IMG/VR virus record: IMGVR_UViG_2711768042_000002
Span: 1-32,094 of that record
Strand: one strand, 5' to 3'
From: a virus
Lineage: Duplodnaviria; Heunggongvirae; Uroviricota; Caudoviricetes
Length of the DNA: 32,094 nucleotides
Shown: one piece after another, positions 1 to 21,682 of the stretch
How positions within the stretch are numbered: the first letter of the stretch is position 1
How the letters are laid out: the number at the start of each line of letters is the position of its first letter
Made by a program: the position numbers and the translations under genes
The notes under the pieces: generated by a model
Told to the model about the DNA's origin: nothing
Database searches by the model: none
The model's input: only the letters and a program-made list of their open reading frames with translations

Positions 1-624
1 AGAAGCATAAAAAAGAGGCTGACCCGGTATTCTCTCAAATAAAAAACGAGCATTTTTAAATCGACTGACATCTGGAAGAGTTGATACTTTAAAAGTAAGC
101 CCTCGCCCATCTATCTTTTCACCACCTGTTGCAACAGAAAGTAATTCTGATAGAGCTGATGTATCATCATGAACACCATCACCAATAGCCCCCCAACCTC
201 TTACATCATAACTGTCTCTCCATCTTGCTATCTGAAGTTTTGGGTATTTATTCGCTCCATCTGGGTCTTCTAATTGCTGCCGTAACTGATCAGGATCATA
301 CTTCAGCACATTAGGAAAATAGAACTGCTGTGTACCATACGCATCATAAACAGCCATAGAATGGCCTTGCACGGTTACGAATTTGGCAATCTGTCCGTTA
401 TATACCGGATATCCAGCAGCGTTAATGATTATTGGTTGCGAAACAGGAATGTGAGAACCGTCTTCGTTCTCTACATAAACCTGAATCTGGTTTTCAGGAT
501 TTACCGGGTCAGTGTCAATTTTACCGATATAAATTTTGCCATTGGCTACGGCTTTAAAAGAACGCGCCATAGTGAAGAGTTGCGAAGGCATACTCACTAC
601 AACATTGGCTGTAATGTCTGTCAT
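1..624 (-). CDS. 9: Tailspike protein, N-terminal head-binding domain (5' part of gene only; C-terminal receptor domain lies beyond the left edge)
   Basis: Reverse translation from ATG at ~624 gives [58 protein letters not shown]..., the conserved P22-family tailspike N-terminus as I recall it; open frame runs to position 1 (208 codons); GGAG RBS upstream. Confidence 0.85.
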
Positions 625-692
625 TTAATTTGCTCCAGATACAAGGAATCGCCGCAGCATTGCCACAGTGATGCATTATTAATCAAACAAAG

Positions 693-770: not shown

Positions 771-1022
771 ATGGGAAGAGATGACCCGCAATTTAATCTG
801 CGGCTACCTTACGAATTAAAGGAAAAACTAAAACAGCGAGCCAAATCCAATGGCCGCTCTCTTAATTCAGAATTAGTTCAGATAGTGACTGATGCTGTAT
901 CAAAGCCATCCAAAATTTCAGGCTATCGAGACGATGCGGAACGCATCGCTGATGAGCAGTCAGAGCTTGTTAAGAAGATGGTGTTTGATACGCTGAAGGA
1001 TTTGTACAAAAAACCCACCTGA
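771..1022 (+). CDS. mnt: Mnt-like ribbon-helix-helix repressor (immI region)
   Basis: 83-aa ORF MGRDDPQFNLRLPYELKEKLKQRAKSNGRSLNSELVQIV..., closely matching P22 Mnt as recalled (Arc/Mnt RHH N-terminus). Confidence 0.85.
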   Translation: MGRDDPQFNLRLPYELKEKLKQRAKSNGRSLNSELVQIVTDAVSKPSKISGYRDDAERIADEQSELVKKMVFDTLKDLYKKPT

Positions 1023-1121: not shown

Positions 1122-1301
1122 ATGGCGAAAAAACCAGGTGAAAACACAGGAAAAAACGGCGGAATATACCAAGAAGTTGGCCCACGCGGCGGTAAGAAAG
1201 ACAATTTTGCAACCGTCAAGGACAACGAAAGGCTTCCGCCAACAACAAAGCCAGGTCATGGCTGGGTATTGGATAAGCGAACTCCAGACAGCAAAAAGTA
1301 A
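1122..1301 (+). CDS. Hypothetical 59-aa Lys/Gly-rich protein
   Basis: ATG with GAGG RBS 6 nt upstream, in frame with track ORF 1107..1301; MAKKPGENTGKNGGIYQEVGPRGGKK...; followed by its own terminator. Confidence 0.5.
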   Translation: MAKKPGENTGKNGGIYQEVGPRGGKKDNFATVKDNERLPPTTKPGHGWVLDKRTPDSKK

Positions 1302-1308
1302 TAATCAA

Positions 1309-1329
1309 GCCGGGTCACTCCGGCTTTTT
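1309..1329 (+). terminator. Hairpin plus T-run terminator (GCCGG-GTCACT-CCGGC-TTTTT); may also end the convergent minus-strand gene
   Basis: Read directly; stop codon of the minus-strand ORF 1315..1680 sits in the loop. Confidence 0.5.
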
Positions 1330-1680
1330 GATATGTCGCTCGCAGAACTCAACAAGCCTGCTCATTAAGTAGCAGTAAGTCTCGTTGGCTCTTCCTGGTT
1401 CAACATCAACACCTACCCTTGAGCAGATATCGAATGCCATGTGAGCGCACTCATGGGCAATAGTAGATAGTTTGCCATTGAACACGCCTATCACATGCAA
1501 AACACCATTCTCGCTACTCATTGTATGAGACGCTCCGTTGGCGTCCGAGTCATGCACGTCAACGCCAAGTTTTTGATGCAGGCGTTGCCATTCTGGAAAG
1601 TCTCTACAAAACACAATTGTACCGCTCTCAAAGAGCGGAACGAGCATCTTTTGTACGTTTCCAATGTTAACTTTTTTCAT
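1315..1680 (-). CDS. Hypothetical HEXXH zinc-metallopeptidase-like protein (121 aa)
   Basis: Track ORF; ATG with AGGA RBS; motif H76-E-C-A-H80 with Glu about 20 residues downstream (RANETY); several Cys. No specific family recognised. Confidence 0.6.
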   Translation of the reverse strand: MKKVNIGNVQKMLVPLFESGTIVFCRDFPEWQRLHQKLGVDVHDSDANGASHTMSSENGVLHVIGVFNGKLSTIAHECAHMAFDICSRVGVDVEPGRANETYCYLMSRLVEFCERHIKKPE

Positions 1681-1710
1681 GGTATCCTGCGCAAAACTAA
1701 GGAGGTTGGT

Positions 1711-2160
1711 GTGAGTGAAAAATTATCAGTTGAGATTTACAGGGATGCAAAAAAATTGATTAAAAAGGCATTGCTGATTTCCCTATCTTTGTTAGCCATT
1801 GCCATTGTTTATTTTGTGGCAGACAAAATCTATACAGAACAAAAAAATAGCAAAAAAAATGCTGAGCTGATTATGCGCGCAGAAAATGTTGTCAAGGGTA
1901 AATCACCCATGGTATTCAACAGAACATTCCTTGGCGAAAGCTCCTCTATTTCTGTTTGGTTTATTAATGATTCAGATGGGCATATTCTTGTAGAAAAAAA
2001 CGGTGAAAAATCATTGTTTTCATCAAGAGAATCCGTATACGGTGGCATCAATGCATACCATCAAGCCGGAAAGGCATGTGAAACCCTGTCTTTTTCTATG
2101 ACTTCAGGTTTTGTGATATCTGTTTCTTGCGATTTTGATGATTATTACACTAAAAAATAG
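1711..2160 (+). CDS. Hypothetical membrane-anchored protein (149 aa), AT-rich moron in sieA position
   Basis: GTG start 5 nt after strong AAGGAGG RBS, in frame with track ORF 1495..2160 (upstream part overlaps the HEXXH gene antisense and is rejected); N-terminal hydrophobic helix LLISLSLLAIAIVYFVA; visibly lower GC than flanking genes. Confidence 0.55.
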   Translation: MSEKLSVEIYRDAKKLIKKALLISLSLLAIAIVYFVADKIYTEQKNSKKNAELIMRAENVVKGKSPMVFNRTFLGESSSISVWFINDSDGHILVEKNGEKSLFSSRESVYGGINAYHQAGKACETLSFSMTSGFVISVSCDFDDYYTKK

Positions 2161-2177
2161 CCATCCATGGCATTTAG

Positions 2178-4019
2178 TCACTGCTGTGTTGCCTCAGTAG
2201 CAAACAGCGGTCTGATGGCATTCGCAGCATTATTTAGCGCTCTTTCATAGGCTGGTGTTCCTGCTTTGGTGTTTGCCAAGCGTAAGAGAGCATTCCTTGC
2301 TGCTTTGGATTCATACAAGCGCATCATTGCACCGAAACCAGCCTCAAGCCCCATTGATACGCCAAGAGTCGCAGTTGCGCCAATCGTCCTTATCCTGTTG
2401 GCTTGCGATTGCCCCGTCTGAGTTACTACATTTGCGGTGTCTGACCTTGCTGTTTGCTGTAGAACTTCATGAAGAGCATCAAGTTCTTTCATGTGCTTTC
2501 CAGAAAAAATAGTGTTGTAAATTTCACCGCCTGACTGAGATTTCAGCTTATTAACTTCAGTGATGAACTTGGCTGGAGAGTCACCGGCCTTTTCCGCTAT
2601 TTTGCTGACGTAAGCTGCACGCATAGCATCTTTCCCTTTATCATCCAGTGCGCTCCAGATTCGTTTCACGTCAGATGGTTTTCTGCTTAATACAACGGTA
2701 TTTATAAGTTCAGGACTGGCTTCACTGCTTGCCTTGTTGAGTTTGTTAGCAATGTTTTTATTAAGCACCTTATTATAAACGTTTGCATAATCGGAATTTG
2801 CTTTAAGGTATTTTGCTGCGTCTGATGCACCGAGGTTTTTAGCAACTGCGTTACGAAGGTCTTTTGACATTGCATTCTCTACCATATTGGTAGCTGCTTT
2901 TGCCTGGTTGGGGAAGACCATAGCATCTCCCTGAACATTAGATCTAAATGCTGTTCTGTGCTGACGCAAGAGATCAAACGTAACATCCAAATCAGTTGCA
3001 GGGTTTGCTAATTCTTCACGTAGGTTACGCAAGGATGTAAGCAGGCTTTGATTGGCAGACGTCCCAAGCCGTTCCTGTCTTGCGATCGCTGTATTCAGAG
3101 CATTCATGGTATTTGTGGTATCAACTGCGGCATTACCCATTTTATTGGTGACGTCATTGATAACAGCGCCAGCGGCATCCTTCCGTCCCCTTAACGTGGT
3201 GGTCAGAGATTTCACCACATCATCCGGGTTGTACTCACCAAAACGGTCAAAATAATTACTTACCAACTTACTACGCGTTGCATATTGCTCCGCTCGCTTT
3301 GAGCCTGTCCCGAGCAAAGCCCCCTCGGCATCCTGAGTAAGACCGCGAGTGAAAGCATTTTTCGGCTGGATAACATCAGATGTCATAGGTGTCACGCCCA
3401 TCGATTCTGAGGTGGCAATTTTTTTCGCTACTTCTGGCGCGATATCGCCTTTTATAGCCGTTATTCCACGCCCTATTCCCTTTGCTGCTGCGGAAAGAAC
3501 ACCCTGAGCGGCAAGGTTAACTCCGGCGTTTATGGCTGCATTTTGCGCGAAATCGCCTTTCTGGTTTGCGGCTTCTGCCAGTGATCCTATAGCCATGCTT
3601 CCTGCCGTTCCAACTCCTGGAACTAAATACCCGCCAATTGTTTCTCCAGCTTGCGCATAAGGGTCTGTTGGTCGATCTACTGGACGATAGACATCGTCCA
3701 AAACCTTGGGGCCACCAAGCCCCTGGCTGATTGCATTAATCAGACTTGCGCCACCCTGCAATACGTCAAATGGTATGTTTACCAGACCACGACCAGCCTG
3801 CTCTGCAATTTGCCCTGCACTTTGACCACCTGTGAGCCAATCGCCAGCTTGTTGCATCAATGATGGTTCTTCACGTGCTGGTTCATTATTGGCCTGATTA
3901 ACTGTTTGTTGCTGAACAGCCTGACCAGCAAAATACTCATCAATGGCGGTGCCAATATCTTCCGTGCTCGTACCATCAGGGAAGGTAAATGTCTTACCGT
4001 TTGCAGTTACTTTCATCAT
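2178..4019 (-). CDS. 16: Ejection/injection protein gp16
   Basis: 613 aa, [32 protein letters not shown]... matches P22 gp16 N-terminus as recalled; position after gp20. Confidence 0.9.
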
Positions 4020-5488
4020 TCCACCGTAAATTGAATGCCTGATTTTGAGGTATATGATCCGGATTGACTCTGCTGCTGTTGGGTATTTGTCGGTTGTTGG
4101 CTATTGCTCTGTTGTTGACTATTTGCAGCACTTGAAACCACCAAAGCATCATAAACGCGACCAGACTGACCACGTAATGAGTTATATTGGCCCTGCATTT
4201 TTCGCATTTTTGTTTCAGTAGCAGCCTTGGAATCACCGGGCTGAGGCAGGTACATTTTGGAATACTCCTGCATCTCTGGCAGAGTAATTGCTGCACCTGT
4301 TTCTGGGCGCAAAATTGCATACAAGGCGTCTCTCGCATTTACCATATATTGCTGCTCCGCTGGTGATAGGCTTAAATTTGCAATAGTCCCATCACCAAGA
4401 GAGCGATTTATTAATGCAACTCGCTTAGGGTCAATGCTTTTACTAAGTTGATTCATTGAGTCCATTGAATCTTTTAATCGCAAAGCAAATCCTGCCGCCT
4501 TCTTGGAACCCTCATTAGCCTTATCTATGATGCTTTGCGCTTGTGGCAAACTAATTGGTTTAATGCCATCACCAGATATAGGTTGGTTTAGTTTTCCTGC
4601 TTCCTCGCTGCCATCGGTGTAATACTTAGTTACCGAGCCATCAGGATTGGTTTCAACCTTAAGTAATTTCTTAGCATTGGGATTAATTCCCGCCGCTGCC
4701 GCAAATGCCGCTGCACCATCTGGATCCGCCTTTAACATTTGCGCGTACTGATTGTAATTCTGCATTGCGGCTGTTGGTGCATATGCTGACGTTAACGCAT
4801 TTGCTCGGCTAATATCCTGCCCTCTCGCCTGAAGTGCTTCGCTGGCCTGATTGCTGCGGATTGTCTCTGCCAGTCTGCCTCGGTCAATCTCACGACCAGC
4901 CATCTTGTCCTGAACATTGAAGTAATCAATCGGACCAAGAGCAGCCATTCCAAGGTGATCAACAAACTCACCAAATCCTGAAGGATTCTGCTGATACATC
5001 TGAGCAACGTTATTAGGGTCAACACCGACGCGAGTCAGTTCCTTGGCGTTGTTTTGCAGCCATGATTGCATTGCTTCTGGAGACGAGGCCGCAAGGCGTG
5101 CGCCAGCCGCTAAGGTGCCGATAGAATTGCGCTGGTCTTCGTCTGCCCACTTCATACCAGACTGAATCTTCTCTAATTGACCAGGATATTTGGTCATCAG
5201 ATCTCGCACCTGCTGCCGATCACCTGACTGGATGGCTGCCGCATATTCTTTTTGGAATGCAGCATCCGCTTCCTGTTGCTTTGCGGCTTGATATGTTTGA
5301 GCGACACTACCAAGCCCCTGCAACGCCTGAAGGCCGATGTTATTGCGACCTGAGCGCTCCATTTCGTTGTTCTGGCGAATATATGCCAACGCCTCACTTA
5401 CATCACTTGCCTTTGGCGCATTTGAGTTTTGCCCACCGATACCAGCAAGAAAGCCGCCTGAGTTGATTCCTTGTTGCCAAGTAGCCAT
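4016..5488 (-). CDS. 20: Ejection/injection protein gp20
   Basis: 490 aa, Gln/Ala-rich; order 7-20-16 as in P22; start overlaps gp7 region, stop overlaps gp16 start. Confidence 0.85.
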
Positions 5489-5497
5489 ATTCCCACC

Positions 5498-6172
5498 TTA
5501 AAACAATGATCCAAGACCACCGATAATACCGCCACCAATAGCGCCAACAGCTGTACCTATTCCAGGTACCACAGAGCCAATCATCGCCCCTGATGCCGCA
5601 CCGCTCATGGCACCGCCCAAAGCTGATTGCAATCCTGATGGTCGGTTAGCATTCGCCGCAGATGCTGCCGCCTGCTGTTGATACAATTGGCTGACGTTGT
5701 TAGCGTAGTTCTGCCCGGCGTTTGCCTGACCTGTAAGAGCACCAAGGCCAATGTTTGCCAGATTGTTGTAGTTGTTCATCTGACCTGACAGCCAGTTTTG
5801 ACCGAGTGTAGGTGCGATTGCTGCTAACTGGTTTCCTGTTGCTGTAGAGCCTAATCCACCCGTTGCCTCTGCTGCTGCCAGACTCTGGTAACGCGCCTGA
5901 CCAGCAAGGTCTTTGTACTGCTGGGAGTTGTAATACTGGTTAAGCGCCTGACCTTGCCCCTGAAGAGAGGAAAGATTCTGCAACTCTGATACGTACTGTT
6001 GAGCGAGTGGCGTGAACGGTGCAAGGTTTTGCATGTTCGTTTGCCACATTTCACGCTGCAATTCGATACCCTTTTCAGTTGCGCGTGCCTGGGCTTTTGA
6101 ACCGCCATCACTGCCACCTTTGCAGTAAACAGCTTTGCTGAGGTGCTTATTGGCAATCTGGAAAATTAACAT
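5498..6172 (-). CDS. 7: Ejection/injection protein gp7
   Basis: 224 aa, C-terminal Gly/Ala-rich tail; position between gp14 and gp20. Confidence 0.8.
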   Translation of the reverse strand: MLIFQIANKHLSKAVYCKGGSDGGSKAQARATEKGIELQREMWQTNMQNLAPFTPLAQQYVSELQNLSSLQGQGQALNQYYNSQQYKDLAGQARYQSLAAAEATGGLGSTATGNQLAAIAPTLGQNWLSGQMNNYNNLANIGLGALTGQANAGQNYANNVSQLYQQQAAASAANANRPSGLQSALGGAMSGAASGAMIGSVVPGIGTAVGAIGGGIIGGLGSLF

Positions 6173-16535: not shown

Positions 16536-17015
16536 TTAAATGATTTGCCAGTCTTCAGCCATCAGGTCGCCAATGGATGGAACCCATGTAGCAAGGCGGT
16601 TCTGTGAGTTTTTCAATACAAGCGTGTCATTGAAAGTTGGCTCGCCAACATATTCGCCAAAGCCATAACCCAACGCAGACGCTAATTTTTCCCCTTTCAC
16701 GAGATAAACAAACTGGTCTTTCCCATTCCATCCTGCCCGCTGCAAACTTTTGCCCTGTTTTAACGCTTCCATGGCAAGGCCGAAACTTAACCCTGATACC
16801 GGACGATAAGCCTTTTCGAATACTTCTTTTGGACTCCAGCTAACGTAGCCATCAAAGCGATCGGTGTTAGGTTTTCCGCCATCCAGATATTCAACCAGAT
16901 AGCCTTCGTCCTCGCCGTTTTCTCCGGCAGGAAGCTGCCAGCCACGAAAATCGTTATATGCCTGTCTCGTCATCGGAAAGGCGTTAATCAGTTTTACGCC
17001 AATATGCTGGGTCAT
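16536..17015 (-). CDS. Hypothetical protein with DUF2829-like C-terminal domain
   Basis: ATG start MTQHIGVKL... inside track ORF 16536..17138 (track N-terminal extension from TTG looks non-coding). C-terminal half FGLAMEALKQGKSLQRAGWNGKDQFVYLV...WVPSIGDLMAEDWQII resembles the DUF2829 signature as I recall it. Confidence 0.55.
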   Translation of the reverse strand: MTQHIGVKLINAFPMTRQAYNDFRGWQLPAGENGEDEGYLVEYLDGGKPNTDRFDGYVSWSPKEVFEKAYRPVSGLSFGLAMEALKQGKSLQRAGWNGKDQFVYLVKGEKLASALGYGFGEYVGEPTFNDTLVLKNSQNRLATWVPSIGDLMAEDWQII

Positions 17016-20673: not shown

Positions 20674-20960
20674 GACTTAATCTTCCCCTCCTTCAGCAGT
20701 ATCGCCTGCGTCCTGATCACACCTTCGAGGTGGTAAAGTCTGGCGTCTTTGTTGTCGAGATTATGGGTGCGTCGGTCGATTTCATCGTGACACGCGCTAC
20801 AAGCCCATGCGCCGATCAGGTCGTCAGGTTTCATTCCCGTTCCGCAAATTCCAGCCATCCGGTAATGTGCCAGAACTGTAGTTTCAGGATTGCCATTGCA
20901 TACGCCGTAAATACGTACCTGACATTCTCTGCCGCGTGCTTCTTTGCGTAGATTGGCCAT
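20670..20960 (-). CDS. DUF1364 (YbcO-like) nin-region protein
   Basis: 96 aa, MANLRKEARGRECQVRIYGVCNGNPETTVLAHYRM...ACSACHDEIDRR, resembles E. coli DLP12 YbcO as recalled. Confidence 0.7.
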   Translation of the reverse strand: MANLRKEARGRECQVRIYGVCNGNPETTVLAHYRMAGICGTGMKPDDLIGAWACSACHDEIDRRTHNLDNKDARLYHLEGVIRTQAILLKEGKIKS

Positions 20961-21682
20961 TAAGCAGCCTCCCCTGTTACTTTCAGCATTCCGTTATCGA
21001 GCAGCTTTCTGGTCAGCCACTGTTGACCACGCCCGGTGATTTTTGTGGTGAACGATATCTGCATTCCGTGATTTGTGTTGACCGCTGTTTCTTTCACTGT
21101 GAAATAGCCGCGCTCCATATATTCCTGCATTGGCACATTGCGCCGGGAACCTGAAGCAATAAGGATTTTGTGATCGCGCATCCACGCAAACAGTTTGTTT
21201 GGACCAATTCCAACAACCTTTGCAAAGTTTCCAATCAAAATTCCACTGGCCTCGCCAACGCGATCGGCAAACTCAACTTTAGGTGCGGCAATTGCGAGCT
21301 GGTTTTCCAGTTGCATTTTCTGCTCAGCAAGGTCAGCAGCAAGGCGCAACGCTTCTGGTAGCGTTTTTGGGATATTAACCGCAGTTTCTTCAAGCTCTCG
21401 CCAACGGTCAACAAGACGAGCGGTGAATTCCGGCGACAACTGGGCAACAACGACAATACTGTCTCGCTTACCTTGTTCGCCTTCGAAGACGTAATGCTCG
21501 TACTGAACATTGAACCCTAAGTTATTGATTCTTTCGAAAACCTCAATTTGAGGAAGCCGGATAACACCATTTTTAGCCAGCGTTTCGATGGTACGCTTCA
21601 CATTGTCATGACGCTTACCAACCAACTCAGCGATTTCAATGCTTGTCATTTTGATGGCATTGCCATTTATTAACTCATTCAT
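20960..21682 (-). CDS. Rha-family regulatory protein with KilA-C/antirepressor-like C-terminal domain
   Basis: 240 aa; N-terminus [35 protein letters not shown] typical of phage Rha; C-terminal half antirepressor-like. Confidence 0.65.
   Translation of the reverse strand: MNELINGNAIKMTSIEIAELVGKRHDNVKRTIETLAKNGVIRLPQIEVFERINNLGFNVQYEHYVFEGEQGKRDSIVVVAQLSPEFTARLVDRWRELEETAVNIPKTLPEALRLAADLAEQKMQLENQLAIAAPKVEFADRVGEASGILIGNFAKVVGIGPNKLFAWMRDHKILIASGSRRNVPMQEYMERGYFTVKETAVNTNHGMQISFTTKITGRGQQWLTRKLLDNGMLKVTGEAA

Follow-up and report, generated by a model that had tools for sequence, protein, structure and literature searches.

The DNA analyzed here, referred to below as the window, is the whole 32,094-nucleotide stretch of a tailed-phage record (Caudoviricetes; IMG/VR record IMGVR_UViG_2711768042_000002, positions 1 to 32,094). 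Between gene 16 with the adjoining sieA slot on one side and the gene pair orf59a-mnt on the other it carries hkcC, whose 121-amino-acid product, HkcC, is probably a soluble, cytoplasmic, single-domain zinc peptidase of the zincin fold that would serve as an accessory of the lytic phase and cleave a protein of the host, of a rival element or of the prophage state. The parts of this reading differ in strength. An active metallopeptidase is very likely, as judged from sequence and structural model, and a lytic-phase accessory gene is likely; we infer metal binding, catalysis and expression timing and, as the least secure part, a specific host, rival-element or prophage-state protein as the target, a class that is proposed tentatively.

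The gene has been known since the genome annotations of HK620 and P22. HK620 hkcC (NP_112089) is 98.3% identical in amino acid sequence to the window protein by tblastn, as is the P22 copy, and the same search located the gene in about 50 further P22-like phages. An earlier first-pass annotation, made from the letters of the window alone, had supposed that P22 has no gene at this place, which is wrong. In P22, gene 16 is followed by sieA on the opposite strand, hkcC in the direction of gene 16, a terminator, and orf59a and mnt again on the opposite strand, with the annotated sieA promoter lying inside the first 31 nucleotides of hkcC. HK620 and P22 have hkcC in the same position as the window and differ only in the flanks: the sieA slot of the window holds an unrelated membrane protein gene of 149 codons, and arc and ant are missing between mnt and gene 9. 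Even in P22, a phage studied as thoroughly as few others, hkcC and orf59a carry the label 'unknown function' to this day; two genome papers describe hkcC and gene 59a in this way, and hkcC has been termed an 'ant moron' gene of unknown function in HK620 and P22. What is new is the family-level picture, a tetrad of invariant residues and the hkcC-orf59a cassette. An anonymous open reading frame of a model phage is turned into a concrete and cheaply testable protease hypothesis. Should HkcC act on a defence protein or on a factor of the lysogeny state, a proteolytic mechanism would be added to the counter-defence or state-switch repertoire of phages and hundreds of phage protein clusters would be annotated at once; if there is no phenotype, hkcC would be one more accessory gene.

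The first-pass annotation had singled out hkcC as a late-strand open reading frame with H-E-C-A-H, a glutamate about 20 residues further on and several cysteines, all of which can be read from the sequence (H76 to H80, E100 with its codon at 1381-1383 on the minus strand, and cysteines at 25, 78, 86, 103 and 113). HExxH occurs in 2.6% of shuffles of the His-rich HkcC composition, and together with a downstream glutamate in 1.4%; the motif alone is therefore weak evidence, and conservation decides. In an alignment of 145 relatives, which reaches down to about 23% identity, H76, E77, H80 and E100 are the only invariant columns, and an independent alignment of 153 sequences agrees. G49, F67, G90 and Y104 are conserved in more than 90% of the 145 sequences, and N99 and C103 are highly conserved. 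The conservation of the tetrad, which had been named as the check to be made, is accompanied by retention of HExxH in 141 of the 145 representatives; of the other four, one is an intact variant with HKAAH, one is a truncated fragment, and two are products that are frameshifted or scrambled. A conserved metal site made of cysteines was considered and rejected, C103 (128 of 153 sequences) being the only one of the five that is broadly conserved.

An exhaustive profile search with a cut-off of E <= 1e-3 returned 547 cluster representatives of the HkcC family, nearly all of them single-domain proteins of 100-140 amino acids. PHROG 1365, labelled 'unknown', is matched over the full length (E 5.1e-38; HkcC residues 1-121 against profile positions 3-120 of 127), and the curated libraries assign HkcC to no family: Pfam and NCBIfam scans gave noise only (lantibiotic models, E 0.03-0.13), and a PADLOC-DB scan gave no defence-protein family at E <= 1. 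A sequence search of the PDB with an 18-sequence profile found nothing, and the 145-sequence profile produced weak metallopeptidase matches only, the best being myroilysin (E 0.028). The weak sequence-profile and fold matches that recur for HkcC are to zinc peptidases only. Judged by sequence, HkcC would represent an uncurated family of the zincin/gluzincin kind that is not SprT-like, M78 or any other named family. A second copy of hkcC was not found within the window.

An AlphaFold2 model of HkcC was built from the 18-sequence alignment (pLDDT 89.4, pTM 0.84). The predicted elements follow each other as strand 10-13, strand 21-25, helix 28-37, strand 49-56, strand 59-66, helix 71-88 and helix 100-116, with HEXXH on helix 71-88 and E100 in the first turn, at the N-terminus, of helix 100-116; such a model corresponds to a minimal zincin core topology. 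A Foldseek search of the PDB with this model gave no match below E 0.1 (SPRTN ranked third, probability 0.51), and BFVD, a collection of predicted viral structures, gave 26 matches at E <= 1e-3 with TM up to 0.83. These neighbours come from Pseudomonas N4-like, Ralstonia, Erwinia, crAss-like and Eggerthella phages and are nearly all uncharacterized, a few being automatically labelled SprT-like or metalloprotease.

The closest parallel in detail is thermolysin (MEROPS clan MA(E), M4), in which H146 and E166 are separated by 20 residues, as are H80 and E100 of HkcC, and in which G162-x-x-N165-E166-x-x-S169, checked against PDB entries, is matched by G96-x-x-N99-E100-x-x-C103. Thermolysin-type gluzincins also share a core of a sheet and two helices with the HkcC model. 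They exceed 300 amino acids, as compared to 121 in HkcC, which has no C-terminal subdomain, signal peptide or propeptide, and a significant sequence or structure match between them and HkcC was not found. Gluzincins are recognized by a helical HEXXH and a glutamate on the next helix about 18-30 residues further on, and both features appear to be present in HkcC according to sequence and model. The description of HkcC as a mini-metallopeptidase-like protein with gluzincin geometry is thus strongly supported by the invariant tetrad, the predicted fold and the thermolysin-like spacing. Minigluzincins such as selecase, proabylysin and projannalysin (about 110 amino acids) reportedly demonstrate that a soluble protease of this size with HEXXH and a Glu/His ligand can be a complete, active enzyme; they share their fold with the catalytic domains of M48 and M56 peptidases. 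In the proposed mechanism, zinc would be bound by H76 and H80 on the active-site helix and by E100 at the start of the next helix, E77 would act as the general base, the backbone of the substrate would be held by edge strand 59-66, and Y104 may aid the stabilization of the transition state.

Variation within the gene demonstrates that the protein is maintained. The 81 near-identical copies comprise 38 nucleotide alleles that encode 5 protein variants; 25 polymorphic codons carry synonymous changes only and 4 change the amino acid, which gives a pN/pS of about 0.04 (about 75 synonymous and 288 non-synonymous sites). hkcC is a real protein-coding gene under purifying selection. HkcC has a pI of 6.4 and is predicted to be neither membrane-bound nor secreted, because it has no hydrophobic segment. 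A toxin had also been suggested in the first-pass annotation. Overt toxicity is unlikely, since a high-copy plasmid spanning sieA to mnt was tolerated and, by gene order, must include hkcC. HkcC may be an anti-defence enzyme, which had been suggested there as well. The gene is also dispensable for SieA exclusion, as sieA with 85 bp of upstream sequence was enough for exclusion in the SieA paper.

The family is nearly purely phage-borne: only 8 of 72,556 plasmid records match it, and 3 of these 8 are near-identical copies on records of 30-39 kb, the size of a P22-like phage. In every context examined the gene lies in an accessory position and is co-directional with lytic transcription. It follows the ejection genes in the window, P22 and HK620; in epsilon34, ST64T, L and ST160 relatives stand between the lysis cassette and the terminase genes, beside Dec; in mEp021 and a metagenomic phage they precede terS, with a gap of 4 nucleotides in the latter; on another contig a relative overlaps both a terS-like and a terL gene; Klebsiella, Rosenbergiella and Proteus prophages have relatives inside siphovirus tail operons; a Pasteurellaceae prophage has one after the replication genes in the early-right operon; and in a strictly lytic N4-like phage a relative heads a cluster of small genes. 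Orf129 of ST64T and L, gene 70 of epsilon34 and gp49 of mEp021 are 37-39% identical to HkcC over the full length and have the same invariant residues. Like hkcC they are co-oriented accessory genes of the late operon, but they occupy the lysis-to-terminase slot and lack orf59a. ST160 carries two paralogues that are 37% identical, Orf129 before Dec/terS (L103 22883-23272) and hkcC after gp16 (37897-38262).

In the window, hkcC lies on the late strand together with gp7, gp20, gp16 and the tailspike gene, with one opposite-strand gene between hkcC and gp16. The antiterminated late transcript would have to cross hkcC on its way from gene 16 to the tailspike gene; the hairpin that overlaps the hkcC stop codon has a good T-tail in the orf59a/mnt direction only. 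HkcC made in this way could act as an endopeptidase during lytic growth and cleave a target for counter-defence, host takeover or a state switch; its role would be neither virion assembly nor cleavage of the neighbouring repressor. Some points weigh against this proposal. Late expression is deduced from gene order and the established biology of the P22 late operon. A sigma-70-like promoter-like site upstream of hkcC at 1751-1722 makes some lysogenic expression possible. Literature searches (hkcC, orf59a, PHROG 1365, SprT plus anti-defence) found no functional study and no biochemical or genetic evidence for any member of the family. Per-gene values for the hkcC region were not found in the P22 RNA-seq paper and its supplements. 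Several other explanations have to be weighed, each of which is rated below the lytic-phase peptidase.

A more specific proposal comes from the convergent neighbour orf59a. The 64-codon frame listed at 1107-1301 most likely starts at ATG 1122, with all homologues beginning with MAKKPGEN and with GAGG upstream, and the Pfam YjzC match of its product is below threshold (E 0.0017). In 70 of 80 near-identical loci, a gap of about 20 bp separates the end of hkcC from a convergent orf59a. A convergent orf59a also accompanies 6 of 8 divergent loci in which HkcC identity has dropped to 42-65%, the partner being 61-80% identical to orf59a. The divergent pairs come from Xenorhabdus, Proteus, Klebsiella, Rosenbergiella, a Pasteurellaceae bacterium and one metagenomic contig; homologues with HkcC identity of 41% or less have no orf59a. 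In P22, Proteus and the Pasteurellaceae prophage, one leftward unit holds a gene for a ribbon-helix-helix repressor and, downstream of it, orf59a. A Proteus penneri prophage (L105 5953-8843) contains a whole immI-like module within a siphovirus tail operon, with tail tube/chaperone-like genes on one side and downstream genes on the other, and composed of hkcC, convergent orf59a, a gene for a 149-amino-acid Mnt-like protein, a small Arc-like open reading frame and two antirepressor-like genes. The two genes may be paired because they are linked in function or because they travel as one tightly linked mobile unit. It is conceivable that the two genes form a convergent 'state-switch' cassette, often with an Mnt-like ribbon-helix-helix gene, that hops between lytic operons of unrelated phages. 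Orf59a would be made in the lysogen, the onset of lytic transcription would run antisense into orf59a and yield the HkcC protease, and HkcC would remove Orf59a or a host or prophage factor under the control of Orf59a; alternatively, it would destroy a host defence sensor that is triggered by late proteins. We hold this cassette or sensor mechanism to be rather unlikely. If true, minimal proteases that regulate or counter defence would form a new class specific to phages.

Expression from the prophage would suit a defence or abortive-infection protease of the Lit kind, made in the lysogen and cleaving, when another phage infects, either a protein of that incoming phage or a host factor that is essential. 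The neighbours of hkcC in the moron region include mnt and superinfection-exclusion genes such as P22 sieA, the site at 1751-1722 could provide a promoter, and hkcC is common in prophages, its region being matched by 424 of 5,426 complete Escherichia coli genomes. Against this stands the orientation of hkcC, which opposes the lysogenic units sieA and mnt-orf59a and runs along lytic transcription in all contexts examined, as well as the tight packing or overlap of relatives with terminase genes, the relative in the strictly lytic N4-like phage and the lack of a PADLOC match. Promoter-like sites are also fewer than expected from shuffles. A Lit-like role is therefore considered quite improbable.

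Placement just upstream of, or between, terminase genes has been met repeatedly in the family and could indicate a DNA-associated protease of the SprT/Spartan kind that frees phage DNA of proteins before it is packaged or in the course of packaging. The SprT-like, Spartan and Wss1 proteins (PF10263) have, like HkcC, a small zincin domain that is common in mobile elements; 19 of the 145 relatives match the profile weakly, which is in line with the Foldseek hit to SPRTN and the SprT-like labels in BFVD, and extra C-terminal tails, some of them Lys-rich, are present in 14 of 153 members. All of these profile matches remain under the gathering score (best 22.6 bits versus 25.6), HkcC itself has none, and they cover mostly an 18-residue stretch of the HELAH helix (profile positions 62-79). 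They are carried, and at no more than the motif level, by members of the HELAH type, and by none of 10 members of the HELGH/HEIGH type. E. coli SprT (HELAHLLVWKH) has its third-ligand histidine at position +6 after the motif. HkcC has C86 there, 78 of the 153 family sequences have Leu and 58 have Cys, and the invariant glutamate at +20 is found instead. hhalign of the HkcC family to the single sequence of E. coli SprT gave a probability of 3.5%. The zinc-ribbon or DNA-binding part of SprT-like proteins is absent; with an acidic family core (median net charge -5) and no recognizable DNA-binding module, HkcC does not appear to be an obvious DNA-binding protein. hkcC of the window is moreover far from the terminase genes, and a role in DNA clearance is a little less probable still than one of the Lit kind.

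The first-pass annotation had also proposed a regulator in the style of ImmA/IrrE. Such an HkcC could switch development through cleavage of Mnt, C2 or the repressor of a heteroimmune phage. The analogy did not hold. HkcC matches no profile of the ImmA, IrrE and CapP family (Peptidase_M78, PF06114) at E <= 1, and M78 is absent among the 25 listed of 30 families matched by the 145 relatives at E <= 0.1, the 5 unlisted families holding at most one member each. ImmA and IrrE have the gene of their helix-turn-helix substrate next to them. The neighbours of hkcC are the membrane protein gene and orf59a, most other contexts likewise lack such a gene, and many members have no repressor gene nearby at all; mnt, which encodes a ribbon-helix-helix protein, is two genes away on the other strand. 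HK620 keeps hkcC even though mnt and ant are mere remnants, and P22 genetics accounts for immI control without a protease, which makes a repressor-cleaving HkcC very improbable.

A part in the virion or its assembly, in which HkcC processes the ejection proteins or is injected with them, would agree with its location just past ejection genes 7, 20 and 16 on the same strand. To our knowledge, a protein of this kind, of about 14 kDa, has not been reported in P22 virions. HkcC is constant at 98-99% identity across loci, whereas gp16 varies between 28 and 99% identity and the slot gene changes; hkcC does not go with any one type of ejection protein, and relatives occupy unrelated positions. No need for hkcC is mentioned in the SieA paper, and yields are normal for hybrid phages whose ejection-protein genes are foreign. 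Such a role is given as little credence as repressor cleavage. Hardly credible, finally, and already largely refuted is the idea of a non-enzyme, either a spurious frame shadowing an extended slot gene or a zincin fold without catalysis: a 221-codon frame overlaps hkcC on the opposite strand (1495-2160, +), some annotations stretch sieA across hkcC and one relative has HKAAH, but the 221-codon frame is an artefact, as translation of the slot gene can start at GTG 1711 from a strong ribosome-binding site of its own and hkcC is conserved beside unrelated slot genes, with the low pN/pS in its frame and the invariant catalytic tetrad pointing the same way.

Features of the hkcC region of the window, in order of position
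Feature	Coordinates	Strand	Basis or remark
Tailspike gene (gene 9), 5' part, downstream of hkcC	1..626	-	99.5% match to annotated tail fibre/tailspike gene
mnt, Arc/Mnt ribbon-helix-helix repressor	771..1022	+	Pfam Arc 2.8e-22, Repressor_Mnt 2.2e-18
orf59a, 59 aa, weakly YjzC-like, convergent partner of hkcC	1122..1301	+	PHROG 3202; co-oriented with mnt and downstream of it
GC-rich hairpin overlapping the hkcC stop codon	1307..1326	.	Annotated t_mnt / tORF59A in P22 and HK620
hkcC coding sequence, 121 aa + stop, predicted minimal zinc metallopeptidase	1315..1680	-	ORF, ATG to stop
G96-R-A-N99-E100-T-Y-C103-Y104 codons	1369..1395	-	E100 putative third zinc ligand, start of predicted helix 100-116
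H76-E77-C78-A79-H80 codons CAT GAG TGC GCT CAC (HEXXH)	1441..1455	-	Sequence; on predicted helix 71-88
First 31 nt of hkcC, homologous to P22 PsieA; putative promoter for the divergent slot gene	1650..1680	+	P22-pbi annotation mapped by homology
Divergent intergenic region, 30 bp, with both ribosome-binding sites	1681..1710	.	Sequence
hkcC ribosome-binding site AGGA, 5 nt 5' of ATG	1685..1688	-	Read from sequence
149-aa single-pass membrane protein, sieA slot, divergent from hkcC	1711..2160	+	One predicted transmembrane segment
Gene 16 (ejection protein), last late structural gene before the slot	2178..4019	-	'DNA transfer protein' in matching records
gp20	4016-5488	-	Pfam match
gp7	5498-6172	-	Pfam match

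The first-pass annotation had placed hkcC in the sieA/moron slot, next to a divergent, AT-rich membrane protein gene 30 bp away, and the P22 layout with its variable slot gene bears this out. The slot gene begins with GTG behind the ribosome-binding site AAGGAGG and has a GC content of 35%, as compared to 47% for the window. A homologue of SieA or HkcB was rejected, as there is zero similarity to P22 SieA or HK620 HkcB; no match was present in 50,697 phage records, and 3 of the 80 hkcC loci from IMG/VR and a single complete E. coli genome contain the gene. It may represent a new type of superinfection exclusion. The nucleotide match with P22-like phages of Salmonella breaks off at about 1713. 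Across loci L019-L098, hkcC and orf59a form an island of 98-100% conservation in mosaic flanks with gp16 of 28-99% identity and at least 4 unrelated slot genes, which suggests that the island serves as a recombination anchor for the exchange of morons.

On the other side of the island mnt is intact and arc and ant are absent, which leaves about 145 bp between the starts of mnt and the tailspike gene (627-770). An inverted repeat, AGACCACTGTGGTCT, is located there at 693-707 and resembles an Mnt operator; a promoter under the control of Mnt may thus point straight at the tailspike gene. An antirepressor-like protein of 240 amino acids with Rha and KilAC (ANT) parts is encoded at 20960-21682 (-), outside the immI region, which itself lacks ant. 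In one of the divergent loci (L008 1330-1968), a PhageMetallopep (PF18894) gene, labelled 'transposase' in PHROGs, lies beside an hkcC-orf59a cassette with 42% HkcC identity. Between Rz and DUF2560/terS the window encodes a 159-amino-acid Thoeris anti-defence 2-like (Tad2-like) protein (PF11195, E 6.4e-22; 16536-17015, -). This gene occupies the late slot that holds the HkcC paralogues in epsilon34, ST64T, L and ST160; slots of this kind do collect counter-defence cargo.

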